NCBI GenBank assembly: GCA_005223125.1
Contig: NJBH01000013.1
Coordinates: forward strand, 32,239 to 96,238
Source of the DNA: Promethearchaeota archaeon Loki_b32
Lineage (GTDB): Archaea; Asgardarchaeota; Lokiarchaeia; Sigyniarchaeales; SOKP01
Length of the DNA: 64,000 nucleotides
Reading direction: 5' to 3'
The notes beneath the pieces were generated by a model. It worked only from the letters and a program-made list of their open reading frames with translations, ran no database searches and was not told the DNA's origin. How positions within the stretch are numbered: the stretch's first letter is position 1; each line of letters begins with the position of its first letter. The position numbers and the translations under genes were made by a program. Below, piece by piece: positions 5,374-63,624 of this stretch.

Positions 5374-8102
5374 ATTAAATCTAACTCTATTAATAACTCA
5401 TTTAATTTGTTTTTTGTTTCCTTATCTTTCGGATTGTTAATCAACCGTTTTTGATAAAAAATTATATTGGGATATTTCAGCTCTAATTTATTAAATAGCT
5501 TTATCCATCTGTTAAAGTTATTGAGTAATTCGTTTACTTCAGGGTCTTCTTCTAAAGACATAATTTCTTCTTTCTCTTCTTTTGAAAGGCTAGTTTTATA
5601 TTTTTTTACACTAATGCCTTGATCATTTAACAACTTCTTATTAGTTCTTCTGATAAATCCTTCCAAACCGCTTCTCCAATGAACATACTTCTCATTAATT
5701 TTATCTATAGTCTCTTGAATAATTTTTATCTCTTGCGGATAAATTGTTTCTTGTTGCTTAGATAATATCTTCTTTATTTTTTGAAATTCTGTTTCAAACT
5801 TCTGAGTGTAATTGTTAACCATTTTCTCAAATTCAAATAACACAGTATTATAATCTTTAGCAAATATTACATCATCACTAGAAAAAGTTAATGTTTCTTC
5901 TTCAAATGAACCTTTTAATCTCCTTTTTTGTATTAAATCCTCAAAAATTTCTCTTAATAAACCAATCTCAGTTTGATTTAATTCCTTGCCATAAAATAAA
6001 TCATAGAAAGAAAATAGAAAACTACTTTCCAACATCTGGTTCCTAATTCCGCTTTCTGTATAAAAGAGAACTTCTCCTGCATTTTGATGAAAAATACCCT
6101 TTACTTTACCGTCAGCTATTAAATCATGAATTAGATCTTCTATTAAACTTGAAGTGATATCATATGTTCCTAAAGAGATATAATCATTAGATTTAGATTT
6201 GTCAATTAGCATAAATTTAATATCATTCTTTGCATCTTCTATTTTTTGCGGGCTAAAAATTAGTAAATCTGCTTTTTTAAAATAAATAAGGCCTAATTCA
6301 TCAATAAATTTCAAAAAAATGTCTAGTTCCATCCCAGTTTTTTCAAGATATTCACTAATCTTTAGTTGATCTTTTTGTTTTATTTCTTCTGCAATTAACT
6401 GTAAATTTTCATCGATTTTTGATAAAATATGATTTCTATCAATATTAAGTTGCTTGGAGATCTCATTAATTTGTTTTAATCTTTCGGTTTCATCTGTAAT
6501 TGAACTTATTTTATCAATTTTATCTTTTAAATACTTTGAGTAATAGAATATATTTTTTTGATTATTCCAAATTCCGCTCCTATAGTCTACAAATTGGTCA
6601 AATACATCTAAGAGTAGAAGTTGTCCTATATTTAATTTATCTGAAATTCTAGATATGTCAAAATAACCGACAATTTTAGAGTTTTGGACTTTATTTGTAA
6701 TTTTTTGTACTCCTAAGTTTGTTAACCACTGTGTACCTTTACGAAACTTAGATAAGTATTCTCTTGGCATATTTTTCACTAATCTTATAAAATCTTCATC
6801 CAATAGAATCTGACGATAAGATTTAAGATCTATAACACTTCCTTTTGCAGCTTCAGAATTAAGTTGATCTTGAATTTTTTTTAATGAGATGTATGTTTCT
6901 TGATCTTTTCGCTTTAAAAAAGTTATTTTCATAGATTTAGAGATACCCTTCATAATTCTATCAATAAAATTTTGAGGAAGGAAGTTATAACTGGTTAACT
7001 CGATAGAACCATTTACTTGTAAATCCTCTATTAATTTTGATTTTATATAGACATAGGGGTAAAAAAATCCAATATCCGAATAATACCCCTCAATTATTTT
7101 TAGATTATTTAGCGTTTTTATAAATAGCTTTAATTCTGAATCATCATCAATAACTTGAGAAAATGTATTATAAATTTTCTTATCTGAGATTTTCTTATCT
7201 TGTTTAAAAAATGTTTTTAGTTTATCTTTTTCTAATTCATAGATATATATTACATTTTCTTTGGTTTTTATATAGAAATAAATCTTCTTTTCCTTAAGAT
7301 TTGATTTAGCAAAGTTCTTTAAGTGCTCTTTGAGATCCACATCTAACTTCTTCCTTATTAGTGAAAAATTGTGTTTTTTCATCAAAAAAAGGTTTTCTAT
7401 TAGGGTTATAACATCTTTACTTTCCAAGTTCTCCAATCCAATTTCATTAAGCAATGGAAAAAACTTCTTTAAAAGTTCTATTAATCTAATGAAAATTTTA
7501 GAGGATTTTTTATCTTCAAATGAGGAAATTAATGATTTTGAAATATCTCTAAAATAAAATAAATGATCAAAATCTAAATCAACACAGGAATCAAGGAAAT
7601 TTAGCAGGGAAATGATATTATCTGTTTTATTTTCTGTTAGAAGACTTTCCAAAATGATTTCTAAATCAGGATTTAATAAATTTGGATTAATTTTAATTAA
7701 TTCTTGTAAAAAGTAATGTACATTATTCCTAACATCTTCAGATTTATCTTTAAGAAACTTTACAAACTCATGAGAATAGCTTTCAACGTATTTTGAATTT
7801 GCAAGCATCGCAAATCCAATGATAATTATTGAATTAATTTTTAACTTTACATCTTCAGATTGAAGAAAATTCTCAATTTTTTGTATTAATCCTTCAGAAA
7901 TAAGTTCGATTCTATTTTCTGCCAAAATTGATAAAATATAGGTAATTGGAACATTATATTTTTTTTCATCCAATAAAAATTTAAATTCATTAATGAGTTT
8001 TGAAATTTTATCAATTTTATTTTTACTTAAAAGCTTGTTTAGTTTATCTACTTTTTCAAGAATTAAGCTATCTTTAAAATCCTCAAGATTAAGCATATTC
8101 AA
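5370..8102 (-). CDS. Large (910 aa) protein: N-terminal HEAT/ARM-like repeats followed by an array of winged-helix-like modules; function unknown
   Basis: Long uninterrupted ORF with typical K/E/I/L-rich coding composition. The N-terminal ~170 aa are helical repeats containing SEDVRNNV-type HEAT turns. They are followed by repeated G-x-[IV]-x-[LI]...F modules. It starts 13 nt downstream of the HAD gene. Confidence 0.8.
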   Translation of the reverse strand: MNMLNLEDFKDSLILEKVDKLNKLLSKNKIDKISKLINEFKFLLDEKKYNVPITYILSILAENRIELISEGLIQKIENFLQSEDVKLKINSIIIIGFAMLANSKYVESYSHEFVKFLKDKSEDVRNNVHYFLQELIKINPNLLNPDLEIILESLLTENKTDNIISLLNFLDSCVDLDFDHLFYFRDISKSLISSFEDKKSSKIFIRLIELLKKFFPLLNEIGLENLESKDVITLIENLFLMKKHNFSLIRKKLDVDLKEHLKNFAKSNLKEKKIYFYIKTKENVIYIYELEKDKLKTFFKQDKKISDKKIYNTFSQVIDDDSELKLFIKTLNNLKIIEGYYSDIGFFYPYVYIKSKLIEDLQVNGSIELTSYNFLPQNFIDRIMKGISKSMKITFLKRKDQETYISLKKIQDQLNSEAAKGSVIDLKSYRQILLDEDFIRLVKNMPREYLSKFRKGTQWLTNLGVQKITNKVQNSKIVGYFDISRISDKLNIGQLLLLDVFDQFVDYRSGIWNNQKNIFYYSKYLKDKIDKISSITDETERLKQINEISKQLNIDRNHILSKIDENLQLIAEEIKQKDQLKISEYLEKTGMELDIFLKFIDELGLIYFKKADLLIFSPQKIEDAKNDIKFMLIDKSKSNDYISLGTYDITSSLIEDLIHDLIADGKVKGIFHQNAGEVLFYTESGIRNQMLESSFLFSFYDLFYGKELNQTEIGLLREIFEDLIQKRRLKGSFEEETLTFSSDDVIFAKDYNTVLFEFEKMVNNYTQKFETEFQKIKKILSKQQETIYPQEIKIIQETIDKINEKYVHWRSGLEGFIRRTNKKLLNDQGISVKKYKTSLSKEEKEEIMSLEEDPEVNELLNNFNRWIKLFNKLELKYPNIIFYQKRLINNPKDKETKNKLNELLIELDLI

Positions 8103-8115
8103 TGTAAAATAGGTT

Positions 8116-8841
8116 TTAATCCAATAAGAATTTTTTGATTTCTTCGATTTCTAAAATATTTTTAATATTTTTAAGCATTATAGTTGGATTAGACTTTTCC
8201 AAACCTTCCCTTGTACCATGTCCTGAAAGTAAAGCAATACTCTTGATTTTTGCATTCTTAGCACATTCAATATCTGCGGGAAGATCACCGATATAGTATA
8301 CTTTATCTTTAATTATTGAATAATTGAAATTTTTCTTAAATTGTTTTAATGCAGTTATAATTGGATATGGATGAGGTTTTCTATATAGAGTATCATCACG
8401 TGAAACAAAGACAGAGAAATACTTATCTAAATTTAATTTCTGTTTAAAAGAATCTAATCTTCTTTTACTAGTGTTAGATACAATCCCTAAGAGAATATTA
8501 TTTTTTTTAAATTTGATCAAAACTTCTTCTAGATTAGGTTTTAAAGTTTCGTACTTTTCATATTTTGGATACATACGCCTAAATTTTATGAAAAATAGAT
8601 TTCTCCTCCAAATACTTGGAATATGTGGTTTATAAACTTTATTTATTCGATTTAAAGCTACCAATCGATTTTTTGAATCTGATTCCTCAAAAAGTCTCGC
8701 ACAATCGATAAGTCTCATATTTTCTGTATTTTGCCAATTATAAAATTTCTTTTTTAAGAAAAATGACGCTGTATATTCAAGAGCCTTTTGAGTAATAATA
8801 ACACCATCAAAATCAAATAAAACTATTGGTGGGTAAGACAT
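8116..8841 (-). CDS. HAD-superfamily hydrolase (phosphatase)
   Basis: HAD motifs are present: motif I VLFDFDGVI, motif II VSNTS, and motif IV YIGDLPADIECA. Confidence 0.85.
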   Translation of the reverse strand: MSYPPIVLFDFDGVIITQKALEYTASFFLKKKFYNWQNTENMRLIDCARLFEESDSKNRLVALNRINKVYKPHIPSIWRRNLFFIKFRRMYPKYEKYETLKPNLEEVLIKFKKNNILLGIVSNTSKRRLDSFKQKLNLDKYFSVFVSRDDTLYRKPHPYPIITALKQFKKNFNYSIIKDKVYYIGDLPADIECAKNAKIKSIALLSGHGTREGLEKSNPTIMLKNIKNILEIEEIKKFLLD

Positions 8842-8944
8842 AAGTGTATTTTAAAGTGCTAATTAACACTTAAATTTATCTAAATTTGTTTTACTTTTAA
8901 AAGAATTAAAATTTAAAAAAAAAGTAAAGATTATACTTAAAATT

Positions 8945-9628
8945 CTACGAATCTATTTCATCTGGTTCTACTGACACGTGAGAAAGTAACCAATCAAGTT
9001 GCTTTTCCCTTTTGTTGATATTAAGAACTGTGGGTAAGATCATGACCTCATCGGCTTTACCAGGCATAATTGTAAATTTACCGGCCCTTAACATGAAGAA
9101 CTCAAAAACATCAGGAATTTCTTTTTTGAATCGTAAGCTTTTTACTGGGAATCGTTCAGCCGAGCTAAATATACCCTTTTTATGAATAATTTCGTTCCTT
9201 TCAATTTTGTAGTATTCGAATCTCGTGCTAATAATGACAATTCCGAGGATAAAAAGTAATATTACCGTCATAACCATATAGAATTGCCATGTTAAAGTTA
9301 AATCTGTTTCCAATCCAGTAAGAGATAACGAGAAACGTGGTAAAACCATGAAAACAAGAATAAAAACGAGAACAACAATAGCTAAAATTAGTACAAAAAA
9401 CATAGTTAAGGAGAAATCAAAAGCAGTTACGAATATATTTACAAAAAACACTATAAACCACACATAACCTAACACAGTATATAGATCAGAATCAGGAACA
9501 AGATTAGTAAACGCTTGAATCAACCATAAAACAAAACTCGTGATGAGCAAGGGCCAAAAGAAAATCACTTTTGGATAAGATCTTATGAAGATCTCAGTAG
9601 GGTGTTTCGCAGGTTTTTTATCAGACAT
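8945..9628 (-). CDS. Membrane protein with C-terminal bacterial-PH (bPH/YdbT-like) domain
   Basis: Four predicted TM helices are followed by YYKIERNEIIHKKGIFSSAERFPVKSLRFKKEIPDVFEFFMLRAG, a bPH-like pattern. It is a paralogue of 9844..10521. Confidence 0.7.
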   Translation of the reverse strand: MSDKKPAKHPTEIFIRSYPKVIFFWPLLITSFVLWLIQAFTNLVPDSDLYTVLGYVWFIVFFVNIFVTAFDFSLTMFFVLILAIVVLVFILVFMVLPRFSLSLTGLETDLTLTWQFYMVMTVILLFILGIVIISTRFEYYKIERNEIIHKKGIFSSAERFPVKSLRFKKEIPDVFEFFMLRAGKFTIMPGKADEVMILPTVLNINKREKQLDWLLSHVSVEPDEIDS

Positions 9629-51780: not shown

Positions 51781-52427
51781 TCATACATCAACTACATTAT
51801 AATTTTTATTTCTATTGTAGAAAACACTAATTGAATTGAAGAGCTCACCCATATTTTTTTGCTCTCGTTCACATAATTGTCCTTCCTTTGGTGCTTGCCA
51901 ATTTATTAAATATTTTCTCCAATCAGAATCATTTAAGATTTTGGAATGAATTCCAAAAAATATAAGAATTTCTTTATCATTTACATAACCACTCTCGTTT
52001 TCGATAACAAAATGAGGGACTTCATGTAAATATGTCCTTCCAGCAATCATGTAAGAAAGTAAAGAATGGTGTCCATCAAATAAAATCCATTCCGATTGCT
52101 TTGTCTTTACTAATTTAATATGTGGTAATCCCCGTGGAGATAGGATATCTTTTCCAGATTTTATTTGTTTAACCATTGTTCTTATCTGGTTAATACTTTT
52201 AATGCCATTAATATTGTGGAGGTTTATAATTTCTCTCAATAAAACTAGTTTTTTACTTCTTTGATTATTTCTTTTATTTTTGAACCTAATTCTTTTTCAA
52301 ACTGCTCTACAGTATCATAAATGGTAACGTTTTTATTTCTTAAATGAACTTTTAATGATGAAATGCGCGTTAAATTTCCATCTTTAGATTTATACGGATA
52401 TATTATTTTCACGAATCTATAATTCAT
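51781..52427 (-). pseudogene. ParB/Srx-like (DGHH motif) protein gene, full length but split by a 1-nt deletion
   Basis: ORFs 52245..52427 (60 aa) and 51781..52239 (152 aa) are co-linear with the single ORF 62962..63429. Copy 1 reads AGTTTTTTAC where copy 2 reads AGTTTTTTAAC (near 52255). The motif WILFDGHHSLLSYMIAG resembles the ParB-N/sulfiredoxin DGHHR box. Confidence 0.7.
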
Positions 52428-52628
52428 CTGTATTAAAAATATTTAACCTAATTTATAAAGCTTTTATGAGTGTTTTAACCAAATATTACATCTTTCATTA
52501 ATAATTGATAAAAAGTTATTTATACAATTCAATTTTGCTAGCCATTCTTTAATAAATTATTAAGAAACACCCTTTCCCTAAAAATCACGAATTTTGGATA
52601 ATAAAGGAATAATAACGGAATATCCATG
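51976..52628 (-). repeat. 653-bp direct repeat, left copy (partner 62971-63624)
   Basis: Hand alignment shows the copies are co-linear, with scattered substitutions and one 1-nt indel. The repeat covers the 5' two-thirds of the ParB-like gene plus ~200 bp of upstream non-coding DNA. Confidence 0.9.
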
Positions 52629-53142
52629 CTTTTTCAATAATTGAAATATCCAAGCCGATTTTCTTAAAATTACTAAGAGCCTTCATAGCTATAGATCCAC
52701 CTCCTATTACCACTACACGTTTAGCATTAAAAACTTGTTTTACAACTTTTTTAGCATCATCAAGTCGATATAAAGTATTTACACCTTCAAGATCTACACC
52801 TTTCCATGGAAGCATTATCGGACTTCCTCCAGAGGCTATCAAAAGATAATCATAGTTTAAGATTAAACCGTTCCTCAATAAGATTTGTTGTTTTTCATGA
52901 GTAACTTTTAACACATGATCATAAATGAATTTTATTTTATTATCATCATAGATCTTTTTACTTTTTAGAAAGAGATCATCTTCCGAACAACTAGCGGATA
53001 TTAGGTTGATAATTTTACTTCTTTTATAGAATTGGTAATCTTCATTTGAAATAATTGAAATATCTCCTGTAGAATCCAACTTCCTAATTTCCAAAGCCGC
53101 GGTAGTCCCTGCTGGACCTCCTCCAATAATTATATATCGAAT
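52585..53142 (-). pseudogene. FAD-dependent pyridine nucleotide-disulfide oxidoreductase (NADH oxidase/CoADR-like), truncated at the repeat junction; probable ATT start
   Basis: The upstream extension of ORF 52585..53094 encodes (I)RYIIIGGGPAGTTAALEIRKL, the FAD GxGxxG motif. A second Rossmann motif, RVVVIGGGSIAMKA, follows. The reading frame then runs into repeat DNA at 52628/52629 and stops after 14 unrelated codons, so about 60% of a normal protein is missing. Confidence 0.7.
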
Positions 53143-53682: not shown

Positions 53683-54693
53683 TTAGCAGATTTTTTCATA
53701 TATATGAATATAATCTTTTACCATTCTTTTGACATTGAATTTTTCTTCAACCCATTTGCGACAATCAAACCTATTTATGATTTTTATATTTTTTAATGCT
53801 TTAACAGCTTCTTCAATTGAATTAATTAAAAATCCAGTTTTACCATCTACTATTACTTCAGGCATACTTCCTCTATTAAAAGCTACAACTGGAGTACCAC
53901 AAGCCATTGCCTCAACAACAGATAATCCAAATGGTTCATTAAAATTAATAGGATGAATTAAAGCATAAGCTTCTCCTAATAACTTATTTCTTCGTTCAGG
54001 ACTTACACTTCCAATATATTGAACTTTGTCATTATTTAAATAGGGTTTTATTTTTTGATTAAAATAATTTTTATCTTGAATAATCCCTGCCATTATTAAT
54101 TTCATACCAAATCTAAGTGATATTTCAATGGCTTCTTTAGCTCCTTTATCATGATGAATCCGTCCAAAAAATAATAAATAATTACCTATTCCAGCCCTAT
54201 AAGTAAATTGATTTAAATCAATTCCATGATGAACCGTAGCAATATAATCAAGTTCAGGGCTACGATCTGAATCACTTATTGATACATAATAACATTTCTT
54301 GTTATACTTTTTATATACAGGTAATATTTTTGGAGAAGAAAATCCATGAATTGTAGTGATTATTGGGGTTTTTGTCATTTTCATATAAGTTAATGGAAGA
54401 AAATCAAAATGATTATGGATAATGTCAAAATTATCTCCTGTTTCAAACAATTCAGCAATATGAATACACTCCCATACTTTTGGTAATAATTCTTTATCTT
54501 CTTCATAACCCCGAGGACATACTCCAATAAGATTTCCTTTAGTTTGAGAATCTTTCGTAGCAAATAAAGTTACTTCAACCCCTTCTTCAACAAGTCCTTC
54601 AGTCAATAATGAAACTAAATATTCCCAAGGACCATAATGCCGAGGTGGTGTCCGCCAGGCAATCGGAGAGAGCATTGCTACATGCATATTCAC
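53683..54693 (-). CDS. GT4-family (GT-B) glycosyltransferase
   Basis: N-terminal VAMLSPIAWRTPPRHYGPWE and C-terminal FNEPFGLSVVEAMACGTPVVAFNRGSMPEVI (the E-x7-E region). It overlaps the upstream GH130 gene by 4 nt. Confidence 0.9.
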   Translation of the reverse strand: MNMHVAMLSPIAWRTPPRHYGPWEYLVSLLTEGLVEEGVEVTLFATKDSQTKGNLIGVCPRGYEEDKELLPKVWECIHIAELFETGDNFDIIHNHFDFLPLTYMKMTKTPIITTIHGFSSPKILPVYKKYNKKCYYVSISDSDRSPELDYIATVHHGIDLNQFTYRAGIGNYLLFFGRIHHDKGAKEAIEISLRFGMKLIMAGIIQDKNYFNQKIKPYLNNDKVQYIGSVSPERRNKLLGEAYALIHPINFNEPFGLSVVEAMACGTPVVAFNRGSMPEVIVDGKTGFLINSIEEAVKALKNIKIINRFDCRKWVEEKFNVKRMVKDYIHIYEKIC

Positions 54694-55646
54694 ACTTTTA
54701 TTTGACTATTATGTTCTTTTAACCATTTAAGTAGTTCAGAAATATTAGCAGTAGCTAATGCAATACAACTATCACCACCTCCATAATAAAGTAAAATCTT
54801 TTCCTTATCTTGTATCCAGCCACAAGGGAAAACAACCTTATCAACATCACCAAAAATTTCATACTTTTCTTTAGGTTTAAATACCCATTCATTAGATCTA
54901 GCTAAGATAATCCTTGGATCTTTTAAATCTAAGAGAGCCAAACCAAGTCTATATATAGCACCACTTACAGTTGTTTTAACACCATGATAAAGGATCAACC
55001 ATCCATCTTTAGTCTTCAAAGGAGGAGGTGATAAACCAATCTTATTTGCATCCCACCAACTCCCTTCTCTGGAGTGAATAAGAATTTGGTGTTCTCCCCA
55101 ATGTTTTAGATCTGGAGAAAAGGAGAGCCAAATATGAGTACCAACACCCGGTCTATTACATACTGGTCGATTTATCATTATCCATCGCCCATTAAATTTA
55201 ACTGGAAATAAAGCAGCATCTTTATTCTCAGGTGGCATAATTGGACCTAAACGTTTAAATTTTTTAAAATCTTTACTAATTAATAAAGATACTAAGGGTC
55301 CTGCTCTGGAGTAAGCTGTATATGTAATTGCCCAAATTTTTTCTTCTTCTAGAAATGTAATTCTAGGATCTTCAATACCCCATATTTCTTCAGGATAGCG
55401 GTCAGGTTTTGGTATCAAAGAAGGTTGAGGATCTATTTGCCAATCACTCATCCCATCCTTGCTCTGTGCCAATGTCAAATGAGAAATTCCTCTTCTATCC
55501 TCAATTCTCATTAAAAGAATATATTTATTATCAATTTTAACAGCTCCAGCATTAAACACTGTATTTGCCGAATAGGGTAAATTCTCGACTGTAATAATAG
55601 GATTTTGGGGATAACGAATAAAAAGTTCTTTATTTGGATCATTCAC
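54690..55646 (-). CDS. GH130-family glycoside phosphorylase/hydrolase (beta-mannoside phosphorylase-like)
   Basis: Contains NPIITVENLPYSANTVFNAGAV, WGIEDPRITF, TYTAYS, LFP, LYHGV and YGGGDS, the five-bladed propeller GH130 pattern. GTG start. Confidence 0.9.
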   Translation of the reverse strand: MNDPNKELFIRYPQNPIITVENLPYSANTVFNAGAVKIDNKYILLMRIEDRRGISHLTLAQSKDGMSDWQIDPQPSLIPKPDRYPEEIWGIEDPRITFLEEEKIWAITYTAYSRAGPLVSLLISKDFKKFKRLGPIMPPENKDAALFPVKFNGRWIMINRPVCNRPGVGTHIWLSFSPDLKHWGEHQILIHSREGSWWDANKIGLSPPPLKTKDGWLILYHGVKTTVSGAIYRLGLALLDLKDPRIILARSNEWVFKPKEKYEIFGDVDKVVFPCGWIQDKEKILLYYGGGDSCIALATANISELLKWLKEHNSQIKV

Positions 55647-56604: not shown

Positions 56605-57885
56605 ATGACTAAAATCATATTTATGTCTGGTTTTCCACCGATGATACATGGGATAGGATCTTATACCAAGTATTTAGTCGATGCTTTGTGTGAAAAGGAT
56701 TGTGATTGTGGAGTAATAAGTTTTGATCCTAATGCTTGTGAATTTCCCATAATGAAGGAGAAAAAAGTAGAATGTGACTATCCAGTCCTTTATACCATCC
56801 CTAGTTGTTATGATTATAATTTCAATCTGATCTTTGACAGTTTAACTAAATTATATAAAAATGGGGATAATTATGTTTTTTGGATACAACAAGGTGATAG
56901 TTTTTGGAGAAATCGTCTAAAATTTGTTAAGATGTTGAAATTTTTCAAGGAAAAGAAAGTTAAAAACATAATTGTTACACATCACACTCTTAATTTTCAG
57001 AGCCCTGAAACCAGATATGGTCTTAAAAAATGGCAATATGAATTACTTAAAAACGAATTACCTTATATAGACGTGAATACAGTGTTCACAAATGGGGTTT
57101 ATATGGCAATTACTAAAGCATTCCCTGAGTATAGAGATAAGATTGTTTTAATTAGACATGGTGTCCCGTCATATCCTCGAATAAGTCAGAACAATGCTAA
57201 AAAAGAAATTATAAGTTGGCTTGAGAGTAAAAATGAATTAAAAAAAGATTGGCAAAAAAGTGTAGAAGATTTAAATTCAAAGATTTTTGAAAGAATTTCT
57301 ATTACATTTGGAGATGTAGGTTTCATAGACAATAGAAAACTTTCAACTAATATCCATTCTACTATAAAACTTTTTCAAAAAAAATTCCCTAACAAGAATA
57401 TAATTGGTTTATATATTGGAACTCTAAGCTTTCTATCTAAACAAAAAATTAGCTATCTACAAAGACTTAAAAATCTACACAATCCTGAGAATAACTTCTA
57501 CTTCTTTGAAACTTATGTGCCTGAGAGATTATTTGCGAAATCACTAAGGGCTTTAGACATAGTTCATATGTGGCAAGAAGATTGCAGGCAGAGTGGAAAA
57601 TTTGCACACGCTATTGGTATTGGTGCCTATGTTATTGGTAGAAAACTTGAGGGTGTAGGCGAAACTCTTAAAATGTGTGGTTATCCTGCGTTGAACACTT
57701 ACAAAGATTTTCTAAATGAAATAGAGCGAGTTACAGCCAATTCTGAGTCTATAGATTTAATGAAGAAAAATGCTAGCAAGTATGCTAGGACTTATAATTG
57801 GGAGAACCAGGCCTTAAAACATATAGAACTTGTAGAATCTTTAATTTCAGGAGGAAAATTACCTCTTTTAGATGGATGGGAGTGA
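56605..57885 (+). CDS. GT-B fold glycosyltransferase (GT4-like, divergent)
   Basis: The N-terminus IIFMSGFPPMIHGIGSYTKYL parallels the GT4 SSYPPRxCGIAxF motif. 426 aa. Its stop overlaps the next ORF. Confidence 0.7.
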   Translation: MTKIIFMSGFPPMIHGIGSYTKYLVDALCEKDCDCGVISFDPNACEFPIMKEKKVECDYPVLYTIPSCYDYNFNLIFDSLTKLYKNGDNYVFWIQQGDSFWRNRLKFVKMLKFFKEKKVKNIIVTHHTLNFQSPETRYGLKKWQYELLKNELPYIDVNTVFTNGVYMAITKAFPEYRDKIVLIRHGVPSYPRISQNNAKKEIISWLESKNELKKDWQKSVEDLNSKIFERISITFGDVGFIDNRKLSTNIHSTIKLFQKKFPNKNIIGLYIGTLSFLSKQKISYLQRLKNLHNPENNFYFFETYVPERLFAKSLRALDIVHMWQEDCRQSGKFAHAIGIGAYVIGRKLEGVGETLKMCGYPALNTYKDFLNEIERVTANSESIDLMKKNASKYARTYNWENQALKHIELVESLISGGKLPLLDGWE

Positions 57886-59074
57886 TTGGATGAAATATGA
57901 ATTGAGAAATTTTCCTCTTAAAAGAAAAGAATTTGATGAAAAAATGAGTTTTGCTGAAAAAAATCTCTTCAGTTTGGGGTTAAAAGATGTAGCAGAAGAG
58001 ATTGGTAGAGAGAATGCAAAGTGGTTCATAGCTAATATACATTCTATTCAAGAAAAATTAGGCTATGAAAAACAAACGATGGTTGTTGGAGCACCTGGTT
58101 TCACTTTCCAAACATCTTCTGACAAATTTCGTAGAGGAATTCCTGAAGGAGCAAGGTTCACATGGGGAGATAATACATATGATTTTATTCCAGCAGACTT
58201 AGATATAGATTTTTGTGGCATGTTAGTTGGCATGGTAGAAGATGATTTAAGTCTTGAGAGAATTTTGAACGTCTTATATGAAATGAGAGAAAAAAAATAT
58301 GAAATTGATAATATAGAGATAGAAAGATCTTATTTTTGGCCAGGAAGTCATTTCTTGAAAGTATATGATGTTAAAAACTATAAAGCCCTAGACTTGCCGA
58401 AAAATGTTGCGGTTTTACACACATCTTCAAATAAAATGCGGAATCAATTAAAAGATTTAGTTCGAGAGAGAGCTGAAGAAATAGAAACATCCTTTGGTAT
58501 AACACGTGTTTTTCGAGGAAAAGATGCGAAGAAATATGAAAAATATTGCAAGTATGCAAGCGACTTTTCTAAAAGAAAACGACAGATTCTCTTTGAAGAG
58601 ATTTTTGATGGTGAGATAATAGCAAACCATAATCACTGTGATTTAAAGGGACTTAATGAAGCAATTATTGGCTGTGATGTTGTTGACGAGGGAGAAATTT
58701 CTGTGATATCATTAACTAATAGAGCTTATCTAGTTAAAGGTAAAAAGAATCTTTCTTCAGAAAAAATCGAAGAATGTTTTGGTTCAAGATCAATTGAAGA
58801 ATGGGCACATAATTACCTTTTAAACCTTAATATGGTTTCTCATGGAGGTGGTCATGAATTACCTGGAGTAGATCGTCTTGAAAAAGTCATTTTTTTTCCT
58901 GAGGGAAGAATATTTGTTTTAAAGTGCGGTTCTAGTACCGATGTATATGAAGACTTGTGGAATTTCCCTCGCGGTTACAGAGTAGAAGGTATTTTGGAGA
59001 GAATCCAATCTCTTGGATTAGCAAGTCATTATGCAACTCTTCAATTAAATTATACTATCAAAGTCGATTTCTGA
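57872..59074 (+). CDS. Uncharacterised metalloenzyme-like protein; compact RtcB-like candidate
   Basis: An ordered set of His/Cys motifs (DIDFCGM, PGSHFLKV, VAVLHTSSNKM, ANHNH, VSHGGGHE) parallels RtcB motifs as I recall them (DINCGV, GSGNHFLEV, VMVHTGSRGLG, AHN, CHGAGR). It is translationally coupled to the upstream GT gene. ATG 57890 is an alternative start. Confidence 0.5.
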   Translation: MDGSDWMKYELRNFPLKRKEFDEKMSFAEKNLFSLGLKDVAEEIGRENAKWFIANIHSIQEKLGYEKQTMVVGAPGFTFQTSSDKFRRGIPEGARFTWGDNTYDFIPADLDIDFCGMLVGMVEDDLSLERILNVLYEMREKKYEIDNIEIERSYFWPGSHFLKVYDVKNYKALDLPKNVAVLHTSSNKMRNQLKDLVRERAEEIETSFGITRVFRGKDAKKYEKYCKYASDFSKRKRQILFEEIFDGEIIANHNHCDLKGLNEAIIGCDVVDEGEISVISLTNRAYLVKGKKNLSSEKIEECFGSRSIEEWAHNYLLNLNMVSHGGGHELPGVDRLEKVIFFPEGRIFVLKCGSSTDVYEDLWNFPRGYRVEGILERIQSLGLASHYATLQLNYTIKVDF

Positions 59075-59251
59075 GATCAAAAAATTTATTCAATGTCCAT
59101 AAAATCAAGTTGATAATTTCTTAACTATGGATTTCTTTTTTCTGTTATAATTTCTTTCAAATATAAATAAATACTTATTTTATGAAAAAACTTTTAATTA
59201 AAGTTGATTTACAATTTTTAGTAAAAATAAGTTAAATACCCTATAAGTTTC

Positions 59252-59425: not shown

Positions 59426-60211
59426 ATGAGGAATAGAAAAATCGAGGGTTTAATCCTTGCAGCGGGTTGTTCTAGGCGATTTAATTCAATGGATAATGCA
59501 TTTAAAAAATATTTATTAAAGGTAAATAATTCGAATATTCTAAGTTATATTATTGGTGGAATGATTAAAACTGGAATTAGAAAAATCAATATTATAGCTA
59601 GTAAAATTTCAAATAAATCAAAATATAAACAAATTCTCTTAAATTCCATAGGAAAACTAGGATTTGATTTTAAAAATTTTAAATTAAATATAATTGAAAA
59701 TACAACTCCAAAAAGGGAAAACGGTTATAGTCTTTTTTTAGGTTTAAAAGCAATCTCCTCTGAATATACATTATTATCAATGGCAGACCATATTTTCTCA
59801 GAAAACATTTTTTCTCAATTGGTAATGAATTATCATAAATATGATATTCTCTTAGCTACAGATCCCATAAATTTAAAAGACTCTTATAAATTAGAAGATG
59901 CCACTAAAATATACGGACTTAATTCTTTTATTACCAATATTGGTAAAGACATACCTGAGTTTAACCGATTAGATATGGGTGCTTTTCTATTAAGGACGAA
60001 AGTTATTCGTAATATTTGTCAGGAAAAAAAATTAGATACTTATAAATTTGGAGTAACAAATGTTGTTCTTTTAGCTATTGAATCTGGACTTAAAGTAAGT
60101 TATTTTGATTTTCCAAATGTCTTTTGGGTAGATGTAGATAATTCTTCAATATATCATCAATTAAAAGAATTTTTTCGCGAATCTTCTAATTTACACCCTT
60201 TTGGTTTATAA
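59426..60211 (+). CDS. Nucleotidyltransferase (MobA-like NTP-transferase; candidate CTP:inositol-1-phosphate cytidylyltransferase)
   Basis: Contains the GLILAAGCSRRF (LAAGxGxR) motif. 261 aa. It lies immediately upstream of a CDP-alcohol phosphatidyltransferase and an inositol-3-phosphate synthase. Confidence 0.7.
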   Translation: MRNRKIEGLILAAGCSRRFNSMDNAFKKYLLKVNNSNILSYIIGGMIKTGIRKINIIASKISNKSKYKQILLNSIGKLGFDFKNFKLNIIENTTPKRENGYSLFLGLKAISSEYTLLSMADHIFSENIFSQLVMNYHKYDILLATDPINLKDSYKLEDATKIYGLNSFITNIGKDIPEFNRLDMGAFLLRTKVIRNICQEKKLDTYKFGVTNVVLLAIESGLKVSYFDFPNVFWVDVDNSSIYHQLKEFFRESSNLHPFGL

Positions 60212-60266: not shown

Positions 60267-61598
60267 GTGCAACAGAAATATATTCAAAATATGGGAAAAA
60301 ATCAAAATATTGATAATATAATAGGTATTATCATTTTACCAGAAAATCCAATATTATTCAAAAATCAGCCTTTTTATACAAAAAAATTATGTGGAGTTTC
60401 AATTTTAGAAAGAAATCTTAATATTTTAATTAAAAATGGAATAAGAGATATATTTATTTTATCAAAAAGTTCAGTAGATTTCAATAATGAAATGAATTTT
60501 GATAGTAAGAAGTTTGTAAGAATCATAAAGATAAGCAATCTTAATCATGTTAAAGAACATTTTAATCGAAAGAAAGAAATTAATTATATGAGCAATATTG
60601 CCGTTATTTTAGATGGAGGAGTTTTAATCGATGAGAGAATTGTTTCTTCATTATTAAATTATGGAGAAGATATTATATTCATAAAAGGTAATAGCATTCA
60701 TTCAAACCATACAGATAAAAATCAATCTAATATTTTAGGAGGTAAAATCAACCTTAGATCCAACGAGTATATTTTTGAAAAAAAGATAGGTTCTTTTCAT
60801 GACTTTTTCAAATCTTTAAAATCTTCTAATAAAACAATCTTTCATTCCTCAGATGAGATTTCTACCTATAAACCAGATATGAGAAGAGATATACATCTTT
60901 ATATTTATTCCTTTCGCAATTATCGAGATTTTAAGTCCGCTAAAAAGTTTCTTGTAAAAAGAACACAAAAGGGAACATTGGACTTAATTGCATGGTATTT
61001 TAATAGACATTTTGAAAATATTTTTGTTTATCTATTTGCTGATACTAGTATAACTGCCAATCATATTACGATATTGGTAAATATATTAGGATATTTTGTC
61101 TTATTCTTATTTTTAATACAATATTGGTGGATTGGTCTTTTTCTATTAATTTTAGTAAATATTCTTGATGGAGTTGATGGTAAACTAGCTCGTTTAAAAA
61201 ACCAAGAGAGTACGGTTGGCCATATTGAACATTCATTTGATCAATTATATGAACAGGCAATATACGTAGGTATAGGTCTTGCCTCGTACTTTATAATTGA
61301 TCAATTTTTTGTCATTATAGCATTAATTATAATGCTACTTTCTGATTCATTCAATCGGCATTGTTCAATGCAGTATAAAGAAGTAATGAAAATAACCTTG
61401 GCAGATAGCAGTAAATTTGATCAATCATTTAGAAAATTTGATGGAAGAAGAAATATCTATACTCTTCATATCTTAATTTTTGGTATTTTTGGTCAATTTA
61501 AATTTGTTATTTTTTCAATTTGTATTCACGCAATAATTACGAGTATAATTTATTCTATTCAAGCAATTAAACACATGAAAAAAGTGGATAACTTATAA
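60267..61598 (+). CDS. CDP-alcohol phosphatidyltransferase with N-terminal degenerate nucleotidyltransferase-like domain (IPCT/DIPPS-like architecture)
   Basis: The C-terminal multi-TM domain carries LDGVDGKLARLKNQESTVGHIEHSFD (DG-x2-AR-x8-G core). The N-terminal ~200 aa are NTP-transferase-like but lack the GxGxR loop (IIILPENPILF). GTG start, with ATG 60291 as an alternative. Confidence 0.8.
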   Translation: MQQKYIQNMGKNQNIDNIIGIIILPENPILFKNQPFYTKKLCGVSILERNLNILIKNGIRDIFILSKSSVDFNNEMNFDSKKFVRIIKISNLNHVKEHFNRKKEINYMSNIAVILDGGVLIDERIVSSLLNYGEDIIFIKGNSIHSNHTDKNQSNILGGKINLRSNEYIFEKKIGSFHDFFKSLKSSNKTIFHSSDEISTYKPDMRRDIHLYIYSFRNYRDFKSAKKFLVKRTQKGTLDLIAWYFNRHFENIFVYLFADTSITANHITILVNILGYFVLFLFLIQYWWIGLFLLILVNILDGVDGKLARLKNQESTVGHIEHSFDQLYEQAIYVGIGLASYFIIDQFFVIIALIIMLLSDSFNRHCSMQYKEVMKITLADSSKFDQSFRKFDGRRNIYTLHILIFGIFGQFKFVIFSICIHAIITSIIYSIQAIKHMKKVDNL

Positions 61599-61640: not shown

Positions 61641-62801
61641 ATGAGTAAAATTAAAATTGCAATTGCTGGACTTGGTAATTGTGCTTGTTCACTAATTCAA
61701 GGTCTTGAATACTATAAAAGTAAGAATCAAGATAATTGTATTGGTTTAATGCATTGGGACATAGGGGATTATAAGCCAGGAGATATTGAGGTTGTTGCCG
61801 CATTTGACATAGATCAAAGAAAAGTGGGAAAGGATGTTGCAGAAGCCATTTTTCAACCACCTAATTGTACTAAGATATTTTGCAGAGAAATTCCAAAGAC
61901 CAATGTTGTCGTTAAAATGGGAAGAGTTTTAGATAGTATTGCGGAGCATATGAAAGATTATGATGATAATTATACTTTTGTTTTATCTTCTCAAAAAGAA
62001 TCTACAAAGGAAGAATTAGTTCAAGAACTTAAAAAATCTAAAGCGGATATGTTTATAAATTATTTACCAGTTGGTTCTGAAAAAGCTGCTAAATTCTACG
62101 CTGAAAGTGCTTTAGAAGCAGAAGTGGGTTTTATAAATTGTATTCCTGTCTTCATTGCTAGTGATCCTGAGTGGAGCATCAAATTCGAAAAGAAAGGAAT
62201 CCCAATAATCGGAGATGATATCAAATCTCAGATAGGTTCTACTGTAATTCACCGTGTTTTAACTAATCTTTTCAAAAAGAGAGGAGTAAAGCTAATGCGA
62301 ACATACCAACTCAATACAGGAGGAAATACAGATTTTCTTAATATGCTTGATAGAGTTAGGTTAATCTCCAAAAAAACATCTAAGACTGAAGCTGTTCAAT
62401 CACAAACAGCAGTTCGTTTAAGCAATGAAAATATACACATAGGACCAAGTGACTGGGTTCCTTGGCAAAAAGATAATAAATTCAGTTTTATCCGAATGGA
62501 AGGTAATATTTTTGGAGATATTCCCATGAATCTCGAACTACGCCTTTCAGTTGAGGATTCAGCAAATTCTGCAGGGATTGTAATAGATGCTATAAGATGC
62601 TGTAAATTAGCACTTGATAGAAATGAAGGTGGGGTTTTATATCATCCTTCTGCATACTTTACAAAACACCCTCCAATACAATACACCGATGATGAAGCAT
62701 ATCGCTTAACAGAAGAGTTCATCAATGGGAACGTGGATATCGCTAGACACTCAATTAAAAAATTGGTTAAATCAAATGAACAAGATATCAATATCAAATA
62801 A
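61641..62801 (+). CDS. ino1: myo-Inositol-3-phosphate synthase
   Basis: KIAIAGLGNCACSLIQGLEYY follows the VAIVGVGNCASSLVQGVEYY pattern of prokaryotic Ino1. Also present are NYLPVGS, GDDIKSQIG and QLNTGGNTDF. Confidence 0.9.
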   Translation: MSKIKIAIAGLGNCACSLIQGLEYYKSKNQDNCIGLMHWDIGDYKPGDIEVVAAFDIDQRKVGKDVAEAIFQPPNCTKIFCREIPKTNVVVKMGRVLDSIAEHMKDYDDNYTFVLSSQKESTKEELVQELKKSKADMFINYLPVGSEKAAKFYAESALEAEVGFINCIPVFIASDPEWSIKFEKKGIPIIGDDIKSQIGSTVIHRVLTNLFKKRGVKLMRTYQLNTGGNTDFLNMLDRVRLISKKTSKTEAVQSQTAVRLSNENIHIGPSDWVPWQKDNKFSFIRMEGNIFGDIPMNLELRLSVEDSANSAGIVIDAIRCCKLALDRNEGGVLYHPSAYFTKHPPIQYTDDEAYRLTEEFINGNVDIARHSIKKLVKSNEQDINIK

Positions 62802-62961: not shown

Positions 62962-63429
62962 TTAAGAACAATCATTTACATAACCACTTTTATTCTCAAC
63001 AATAAAATGAGGGACTTCATGTAAATATGTCCTTCCAGCAATCATGTAAGAAAGTAAAGAATGGTGTCCATCAAACAATATCCATTCCGATTGCTTTGTC
63101 TTTACTAATTTAATATGTGGTAATCCGCGTGGAGACAGGATATCTTTTCCAGATTTTATTTGTTTAACCATTGTTCTTATCTGGTTCATACTTTTAATGC
63201 CATTAATATTGTGGAGGTTTATAATCTCTCTCAATAAAACTAGTTTTTTAACTTCACTGATTGTCTCTTTTAGTTTTGAACCAAGTTCTTTTTCAAACTG
63301 CTCTACAGTATCATAAATGGTAATGTTTTTATTTCTTAAATATACTTTTAATGATGAAATACGCGTTAAATTTCCATCTTTAGATTTATACGGATATATT
63401 ATTTTCACGAATCTATAATTCATCTGCAT
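62962..63429 (-). pseudogene. ParB/Srx-like gene, second copy: N-terminal part intact and in one frame, C-terminal ~70 aa missing
   Basis: The 155-aa ORF is co-linear with 51781..52427 but diverges at 62971 and stops (..GYVNDCS*), where copy 1 continues ..GYVNDKEILIFFGIH... Confidence 0.65.
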
Positions 63430-63624
63430 TAAAAATATTTAACCTAATTTATAAAGCTTTTATGAGTGTTTTAACCAAATATTACATTTTTCATTAATAA
63501 TTGATAAAAAGTTATTTATACGATTCAATTTTGCTAGCCATTCTTTAATAAATTATTAAGAAACACCCTTTCCCTAAAAATCACGAATTTTGGATAATAA
63601 AGGAAAAATAACGGAATATCCATG
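62971..63624 (-). repeat. 653/654-bp direct repeat, right copy (partner 51976-52628)
   Basis: See the left copy. The right end (..GGAATATCCATG) lies 32 bp upstream of the GH130 start codon. Confidence 0.9.

Follow-up and report, generated by a model that had tools for sequence, protein, structure and literature searches.

A deeply divergent, previously unnamed clade of the RtcB superfamily, represented in Lokiarchaeia, predicted to keep the RtcB catalytic core while lacking its GTP- and RNA-specificity determinants

The subject of this analysis is a gene in a 64,000-nucleotide (nt) stretch of contig NJBH01000013.1 of Promethearchaeota archaeon Loki_b32, hereafter the window, which has a G+C content of ~29%. 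The longest open reading frame (ORF) of this gene encodes 400 amino acids (aa) and carries, in sequence order, the motifs DIDFCGM, PGSHFLKV, VAVLHTSSNKM, ANHNH and VSHGGGHE. An earlier note on this DNA had likened these motifs to those of the RNA ligase RtcB and had described a compact RtcB-like protein whose gene overlaps a GT4-like glycosyltransferase (GT) gene in a sugar/inositol-phosphate operon. The ORF and its five ordered His/Cys motifs were confirmed, and "compact" applies in a relative sense only, given 400 aa against the 408 aa of Escherichia coli RtcB. The gene product is identical to TKJ21442.1 ("hypothetical protein CEE43_09880", Promethearchaeota (Lokiarchaeota) archaeon Loki_b32) and falls into the same 90% cluster as Lokiarch_51850 of Lokiarchaeum GC14_75; all named members of the family are annotated "hypothetical protein". 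Upstream lies a tentatively GT4-like gene, and downstream follow an NTP-transferase, a CDP-alcohol phosphatidyltransferase-family membrane protein and a myo-inositol-1-phosphate synthase (MIPS).

Searches with the single protein against Pfam, NCBIfam, PADLOC and the PDB sequences returned no meaningful match (a weak match to uL6 was judged to be noise), and the Pfam RtcB model (PF01139) failed to match it at E <= 1. Wider profile comparisons, in contrast, lead to RtcB. When an alignment of 140 family members was compared by hhalign with an alignment of 89 RtcBs (the E. coli protein together with viral and bacterial RtcBs), the local mode gave a probability of 97.5% and E = 6.9e-12 and the global mode 98.7% and E = 2.3e-15, with residues 24-398 of the RtcB-like protein aligned collinearly to residues 4-407 of RtcB, whereas reversed or column-shuffled RtcB alignments used as controls yielded E values of 0.04-0.9. 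A HMMER profile of 72 sequences retrieved from PDB the RtcBs of Pyrococcus horikoshii (E = 3.4e-4) and Thermus thermophilus (TTHA1785; E = 5.9e-4), with the next match at 0.2. Both the HMMER and the hhalign signals rose after sequence diversity was added; a 35-sequence HMMER profile missed RtcB in PDB, and an hhalign comparison with E. coli-type RtcBs of low diversity gave a marginal result (E = 0.058). Starting from the RtcB side, PF01139 matched 5 of the 72 family members, all below threshold (best E = 0.0071), and hmmsearch with an RtcB hidden Markov model made in this analysis recovered no family member at E <= 1e-3.

The structural comparison points in the same direction. An AlphaFold2 model of the RtcB-like protein, built on 35 homologues (predicted local distance difference test, pLDDT, 93.5; predicted template modelling score, pTM, 0.92), had four significant Foldseek matches in PDB, all of them RtcB (probability 1.00, TM-scores of 0.44-0.52), namely zebrafish RTCB (9i8v_C, E = 1.7e-9), chains A and B of TTHA1785 (2epg, E = 8.4e-9 and 1.6e-7) and human RTCB (8orj_A, E = 3.3e-7), followed by the next match at E = 0.06. 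The sole significant match among viral models (BFVD) was, likewise, a phage RtcB (E = 8e-11, TM 0.54/0.58). To our knowledge, the RtcB fold is otherwise unique among solved structures. Sequence identity in these structural alignments is about 10-12%, which, together with TM-scores of 0.44-0.58, indicates a distant relationship. On the combined evidence of profiles and the predicted fold, we conclude that the protein is truly, if remotely, homologous to RtcB, such that the RtcB-like reading holds at the superfamily level, and that its family constitutes a deeply divergent and hitherto unnamed clade within that superfamily. With the PF01139 proteins (PH1602, E. coli RtcB, human RTCB and TTHA1785) it has in common the fold, a full-length collinear profile and the core residues, and it differs from them by a distinct helical N-terminus. 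We found no description of this clade in literature searches, nor any database name or Pfam model that captures it.

A word-indexed search yielded no more than 52 clusters, all of them lacking Pfam domains. When a library of 1.84 billion representatives (the product of clustering about 15 billion proteins) was searched exhaustively with a profile, 317 clusters at 50% identity emerged (E <= 1e-3); their members are about 350-420 aa long or fragments, and none resembles canonical RtcB. The archaeal members come from Promethearchaeota (82-85% identity, one labelled Bathyarchaeota), Hadarchaeota (~55%) and Bathyarchaeia (~50%), and bacterial members at 25-29% identity come from Armatimonadota (including Zipacnadia), Ca. 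Hydrothermus and WS1. In addition, a metagenome scan for a single bacterial-type subclade confirmed 316 loci. A few hundred orphan proteins from Asgard archaea, Hadarchaeota, Bathyarchaeia and Armatimonadota thus become annotatable as RtcB-superfamily enzymes.

In P. horikoshii (Pho) RtcB, metal M1 is bound by Cys98, His234 and His329, metal M2 by Asp95, Cys98 and His203, and His404 is the guanylylated nucleophile (PMC9745838). By alignment, the corresponding M1 ligands in the RtcB-like protein would be C115, H183 and H255, the M2 ligands D113, C115 and H160, and the nucleotide-accepting residue H324 (Table 1; the E. coli (Eco) RtcB translation was used without the initiator Met, so that the Eco numbering quoted here is increased by 1 and agrees with PMC9745838). 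Among 140 homologues, down to about 20% identity, H160, H183, H255 and H324 are conserved in all 140 and C115 in 135, well beyond chance expectation, and position 113 carries Asn in 81 sequences and Asp in 51. H324 is located within an HGGG loop that aligns to the RtcB HGAG loop. The mapping of the five motifs onto the metal-binding and nucleotidyl-His motifs of RtcB was therefore correct, as seen from the collinear hhalign alignment, and the proposed ligands are conserved, except that within VSHGGGHE only the first His is invariant, the second (H328) being Tyr in 65 and His in 46 of the 140 sequences. Further counterparts of RtcB elements include a helix ending in K/R236-R237 (N-R in RtcB), Y369-R370 (the AYK motif), K397 near the C-terminus, and an AYLVKGKxN strand that matches the S(F/Y)(I/L)VxGxGN strand of RtcB. 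The N-terminal PDxHxGxG motif, reported missing in the earlier note, is indeed absent in its canonical form but persists in a degenerate one, PD-x-T…(R/K)(W/F)xxGxxxG, in which seven residues are inserted and Lys or Arg takes the place of the His; the RtcB-like protein itself has P75-G76 where most homologues have PD. Thus, judging from the alignment, the complete RtcB catalytic core is kept, comprising the Cys-bridged two-metal site and the nucleotide-accepting His. A pseudo-enzyme was considered and rejected, the catalytic residues being invariant.

The elements by which RtcB reads GTP and the RNA strand show the opposite pattern. In the Pho enzyme, Glu206 (Eco E171) reads guanine N1/N2 (PMC9745838, PMC8051266), Lys480 contacts guanine O6 (PMC9745838), the Gly378-Thr383 (PGSMG) loop forms the guanosine pocket and Asn330 (Eco N282) contacts the gamma-phosphate (PMC9745838, PMC8051266), whereas on the acceptor side Arg238 (Eco R189) grips the 5'-OH strand at its first two phosphodiesters and Asn202 (Eco N167) holds the 5'-OH nucleophile (PMC8051266). 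Eco E171, R189, N282, P313-M316 and R341 are present in 89 of the 89 RtcBs and are variable or absent in the RtcB-like family. Specifically, the position equivalent to Glu206 (163) is occupied by N, D, K and E in 58, 19, 17 and 14 family members, respectively, and by Lys in the protein studied here; the PGSM loop has no counterpart; the R189 position (187) varies between P, N, D and S and is Asn in our protein; and R341, the Arg of HGAGR, is lost or variable. The counterpart of N167, also present in all 89 RtcBs, is Ser in the RtcB-like protein and Asn in 96 (69%) and Ser in 35 members of the family. If Lys480 is equated with the Lys of the AYK motif, which is our own assignment, its counterpart is Arg370. 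Conversely, the basic residues R/K190, K/R236, R237, R370 and K397 are conserved within the family. By these alignments the protein is not a canonical RtcB: it retains the core, and the determinants of GTP specificity and of the RNA 5'-OH strand are lost. With the guanine-reading Glu, the pocket loop and two arginines (the one that clamps the 5'-OH strand and the one in HGAGR) all gone, the enzyme is probably not specific for GTP as its nucleotide, nor is the canonical pair of RNA 3'-phosphate and 5'-OH ends likely to be its substrate.

The retention of the metal ligands alongside the loss of every guanosine-binding element could also be accommodated by a metal-dependent phosphoesterase, in which the two-metal site serves hydrolysis, akin to the 2',3'-cyclic phosphodiesterase step of RtcB, and H324 acts as phospho-acceptor or general base, the reaction passing through no nucleotidyl intermediate; HD and HAD phosphohydrolases do occur among the neighbours of family genes (see below). 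We regard this as very improbable, given that an invariant nucleophile His in an HGxG loop equivalent to the RtcB HGAG loop is most simply explained as a retained covalent step and that the counterparts of the AYK Tyr and Lys are kept as Y369 and R370.

At the locus itself, the gene is intimately linked to its upstream neighbour. A start-stop overlap (14 nt) exists only if the first ATG of the longest ORF is used. The N-termini of the homologues, most of which begin with MKYELR or MEYELR at the position corresponding to Met7, an independent gene call for the relative L115 that starts there too, 4 nt past the stop of a 426-aa partner, and a Shine-Dalgarno-like element (Table 1) indicate that the true start is probably the downstream ATG. 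Whichever start is used, the two genes are tightly coupled, so the coupling claimed in the earlier note stands but the overlap probably does not. This coupling is kept throughout the close Lokiarchaeial relatives (L086, L087, L097 and L115, in addition to the window). The GT4 label of the partner is less secure: a match to Pfam Glyco_transf_4 exists (E = 0.0016) but is below threshold (18.9 bits against a cut-off of 28.5), and is seen in two of three orthologues; we detected no C-terminal Glycos_transf_1 match and no PDB sequence match, hhalign against the neighbouring true GT4 was not significant, and a single-sequence AlphaFold2 model (pLDDT 42) was unusable.

Table 1. Positions in the window of the RtcB-like gene, its predicted core residues and the surrounding features
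Feature	Coordinates	Strand	Remarks
RtcB-like ORF	57872-59074	+	400 aa as longest ORF
Probable true start, ATG (Met7)	57890-57892	+	394 aa; 4 nt after partner stop codon
Shine-Dalgarno-like element GGGAGTGA	57877-57884	+	inside the end of the upstream gene, 5' of ATG 57890; putative function
D113-F114-C115 codons	58208-58216	+	D113: Eco D75/Pho D95, M2 ligand in RtcB; C115: Eco C78/Pho C98, M1-M2 bridge in RtcB; both by hhalign
H160 (PGSHF)	58349-58351	+	Eco H168/Pho H203, M2 ligand in RtcB; hhalign, HMMER profile
H183 (VLHTSS)	58418-58420	+	Eco H185/Pho H234, M1 ligand in RtcB; hhalign, HMMER profile
H255 (second His of ANHNH)	58634-58636	+	Eco H281/Pho H329, M1 ligand in RtcB; hhalign
H324 (SHGGG)	58841-58843	+	Eco H337/Pho H404, nucleotidyl-accepting His in RtcB; hhalign
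Upstream partner, tentatively GT4-like	56605-57885	+	426 aa; Pfam Glyco_transf_4 sub-threshold
Stop codon (TGA) of upstream partner	57883-57885	+	
Oligo-T run TTTCTTTTTTCT	59132-59143	+	58 nt past the stop codon of the RtcB-like gene; possible archaeal terminator, putative function
NTP-transferase, IPCT-like	59426-60211	+	Pfam NTP_transf_3, E = 5e-9; N-terminal half of NF041135, E = 2.8e-25
CDP-alcohol phosphatidyltransferase-family membrane protein	60267-61598	+	PF01066, E = 2.3e-9; C-terminal half of NF041135, E = 2.4e-13
MIPS	61641-62801	+	PF01658, E = 2.4e-35; TIGR03450, E = 1e-129
GT4 and GH130 genes	53683-55646	-	PF00534, E = 3e-26; PF04041, E = 9e-64; 4-nt overlap
Pyr_redox_2-related ORF	52585-53094	-	169 aa; matches positions 24-174 of 291
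Direct repeat, left copy	51976-52548		~573 bp, 95% identity between copies
Direct repeat, right copy	62971-63544		~10,996 bp from the left copy
ORF largely covered by left repeat copy	51781-52239	-	152-155 aa (both ORFs); no Pfam match
ORF largely covered by right repeat copy	62962-63429	-	no Pfam match

The three downstream genes match MIPS and the two halves of NF041135, the NCBIfam model of the bifunctional IPCT/DIPPS enzyme (IPCT, inositol-1-phosphate cytidylyltransferase), as in the IPCT/DIPPS pathway of di-myo-inositol phosphate synthesis, and the locus therefore appears to encode CDP-inositol-type chemistry. The NF041135 scores of the IPCT-like and CDP-alcohol transferase genes are far below the equivalog cut-off, although the Pfam thresholds are passed, and archaetidylinositol-phosphate synthase is an alternative label for the CDP-alcohol transferase (E = 5.5e-12), which is also similar to DIPP synthase. 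This membrane protein has an additional N-terminal region of ~220 aa, with no Pfam match, in the place of the cytidylyltransferase domain of the bifunctional IPCT/DIPPS, and the separate IPCT-like gene lies immediately upstream; the region may be a degenerate nucleotidyltransferase domain. The enzymes of this pathway are unrelated to the RtcB-like protein in fold and mechanism, and we know of no step in it that requires an RtcB-type enzyme. Since the IPCT-like and CDP-alcohol transferase genes would suffice, no RtcB chemistry would be needed to form the inositol phosphodiester.

This observation bears directly on the functional speculation of the earlier note in its specific form, according to which the RtcB-like enzyme, the GT and the CDP-inositol genes together build a phosphodiester-linked inositol, polyol or sugar solute through nucleotidylation of a sugar or inositol phosphate. 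A block of GT-like, RtcB-like, NTP-transferase and CDP-alcohol transferase genes does recur, with differing flanks, in the window, in L087/L088 and in L115, the transferase pair following the RtcB-like gene in four of the five close-relative genomes and the coupling to the GT-like gene being invariant in the Lokiarchaeial lineage. Moreover, a 48% identical relative (P0045) is found among GT4/TreT-like and trehalose-phosphatase genes, and the kinase fusion described below demonstrates that the RtcB-like domain can be combined with a phosphorylating enzyme of the small-molecule type. Nevertheless, the proposal seems improbable. The context is absent outside Lokiarchaeia, the close relative L086 lacks the CDP-alcohol genes, and the relatives that share the block are 82-85% identical, such that the synteny may simply be inherited. 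The spacer of 351 nt between the RtcB-like gene and the next gene is AT-rich and includes an oligo-T run, which suggests a separate transcription unit; the GT identity of the partner is below threshold, and the GT genes near P0045 are convergent. Hence the survey of neighbourhoods did not bear out a glycosyltransferase/inositol-phosphate context as a defining feature of the family, and the sugar/inositol operon is weakened both by the spacer and by its restriction to one lineage.

Across about 110 surveyed loci with 1,118 neighbour ORFs, we recognised no RtcA, archease, PrfH or other RNA-repair gene among the annotated or recurrent neighbours, and no canonical RtcB among the neighbour ORFs. 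In contrast to RtcB, family members reside in small-molecule operons or form part of a fusion with an APH kinase. There is also no PADLOC match, and a role as a defence-system component was dismissed. In Hadarchaeota and Bathyarchaeia, the gene mostly stands alone, with varied neighbours that include TBP, RNase P/ribosomal, TRAM and F420-related genes. In two Hadarchaeota-type contigs (L001, 9005-9559; L108, 6164-6712), a TBP gene divergently adjoins the family gene, an adjacency that may reflect lineage synteny.

In the distant, mostly bacterial branch of the family, several gene arrangements recur. At about 22 loci, a TetR gene and a DksA/TraR zinc-finger gene precede the family gene on the same strand, and at about ten loci an HD-domain gene follows it on the same strand with a gap of 6-101 nt. 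At about eight loci, all on one strand, the order is two S-adenosylmethionine (AdoMet) decarboxylases, spermidine synthase, the family gene, glutamate racemase, and class IV and class I aminotransferases; these polyamine-type loci (L175, L177, L179, L182, L192, L193 and L197) belong to one bacterial lineage, with the family gene at ~8001-9194 in most. ATP-grasp genes of at least four non-orthologous kinds abut or overlap the family gene on the same strand in several lineages. In L003/L118, another family member comes after arginine decarboxylase, agmatinase, deoxyhypusine-synthase-like, peptidase, 7TM-transglutaminase and ATP-grasp genes.

A further arrangement is a fusion of an APH kinase to the RtcB-like domain, found in two independent assemblies (P0067, 743 aa, and P0350, 745 aa; 68% identical) and located in both within a tightly packed operon. 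The gene order (L113, 5518-13751; L114, 96-8391) is two HydE/PylB-like radical SAM enzymes, an ATP-grasp ligase, a HisC/CobD-like pyridoxal-phosphate (PLP) enzyme, the fusion and an SDR, with the last gene encoding a HAD phosphatase in one contig and a PRK/uridine-kinase-like protein in the other. This is apparently an undescribed bacterial biosynthetic operon, and the same theme is seen in L099, where a KamA-like radical-SAM aminomutase gene and ATP-grasp genes occur. The kinase and the PLP enzyme of the fusion operon weakly resemble the guanitoxin enzymes GntI and GntC. The APH kinase was rejected as a general partner: in Zipacnadia-like Armatimonadota, the kinase is separated from the family gene by two opposite-strand genes and is not orthologous to the fused kinase, and these loci, being mutually related, provide weak evidence only.

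We know of no enzyme class other than RtcB that joins 3'-phosphate to 5'-OH ends through His-GMP, and all characterised RtcB members known to us or retrieved by our literature searches act on nucleic acids. Specialised paralogues such as RtcB2 are taken to be ordinary PF01139 members acting on RNA, and RtcB2 of the PrfH ribosome-repair module reportedly illustrates how an RtcB-fold paralogue can be turned to a specialised target with the help of a dedicated partner encoded next to it. The RtcB-like family differs from RtcB2/PrfH in being outside the Pfam model and in having no PrfH-like partner in the surveyed loci. The whole of the evidence is, in our estimation, best explained by an unnamed divergent RtcB clade that retains RtcB-type chemistry with an altered nucleotide and substrate, a reading to which we lean with only modest confidence. 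Under such a mechanism, the enzyme would bind a nucleoside triphosphate (NTP) across the two metals, as RtcB does, and form a covalent adduct of His324 with the nucleoside monophosphate (NMP); the NMP would then be passed from His324 to a phosphomonoester, yielding an activated, pyrophosphate-linked intermediate that would leave the enzyme or, on attack by a hydroxyl, be converted into a phosphodiester. In Lokiarchaeia, the gene is probably co-transcribed with the GT-like gene beside the CDP-inositol-type genes, and in other lineages it lies in unrelated small-molecule operons. Because the context differs in this way between lineages, the substrate seems to be either lineage-specific or generic. 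Provided that its members are active, the family would extend RtcB chemistry to further substrates.

Several considerations weigh against this explanation, at least in part. Nucleotidylation, metal use and any ligation are extrapolated from homology; the M2 Asp position is Asn in 58% of the members; and the clustering of the six core residues depends on the alignment and on moderate global fold matches (TM 0.44-0.58). The themes of the neighbourhoods vary from lineage to lineage, and common descent, not function, may account for several of them. Finally, TRAM, RRM, PolX and HD neighbours, together with the conserved basic residues, which could form a nucleic-acid-binding surface, keep a role in nucleic-acid metabolism alive.

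The principal competing possibility is, accordingly, a nucleic-acid end-joining or 3'-phosphate-capping enzyme that binds a polynucleotide and an NTP via residues other than those used by RtcB. Such an enzyme would share the fold and catalytic core of RtcB, and family-specific basic residues (R/K190, R237, R370 and K397) would be available for contacts with the phosphate backbone. The Hadarchaeota gene, which adjoins TBP, RNase P, ribosomal-protein and TRAM genes, the housekeeping-like, stand-alone placement in Hadarchaeota and Bathyarchaeia, an RRM gene that follows one bacterial copy, the closely spaced HD genes, and a PolX-PHP gene 380-640 nt downstream in about ten of the TetR/DksA-type loci would all fit this role. 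However, the counterpart of Arg238/Eco R189 is not conserved and that of Asn202 is Ser in the RtcB-like protein, the surveyed loci yielded no recognisable RNA-repair partner, the distance of PolX implies that it probably belongs to a separate transcription unit, and the kinase fusion is embedded in an amino-acid-type biosynthetic operon. On balance, we consider this possibility rather unlikely.

A non-canonical, possibly non-nucleic-acid, substrate, of the kind raised as speculation in the earlier note, is favoured by the loss of the GTP and RNA determinants, the lack of RNA-repair partners at the surveyed loci, the kinase fusion, and the amino-acid-, polyamine- and sugar-type operons. One possible form of the altered RtcB-type chemistry, which we hold to be somewhat less likely than not, is that the family comprises metabolite (or peptide/polyamine-conjugate) phosphate ligases or nucleotidyltransferases that activate small-molecule phosphomonoesters via His-NMP on the RtcB scaffold, with the phosphomonoesters supplied in some bacteria by the fused or neighbouring kinase and with a sugar/inositol-phosphate link in Lokiarchaeia. 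Were this the case, RtcB chemistry would have been put to use beyond the repair of nucleic acids. Concrete starting points for finding the function are provided by the fusion with the kinase and by the biosynthetic operons.

Some additional features of the window concern the surroundings of the gene. A direct repeat brackets an 11-kb island that consists of the Pyr_redox fragment, GT4, GH130, GT-like, RtcB-like, IPCT-like, CDP-alcohol transferase and MIPS genes (Table 1). This arrangement could represent a segmental duplication, an island that is mobile or recombines, or an artefact of assembly. Just inside its left copy, the Pyr_redox_2-related ORF looks like a truncated remnant of a pyridine-nucleotide-disulphide oxidoreductase. 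The GT4 gene and the gene for a GH130 beta-mannoside phosphorylase-type enzyme are divergent from the GT-like/RtcB-like pair, with a spacer of ~960 nt, and suggest that mannoside or compatible-solute metabolism is encoded in the island.

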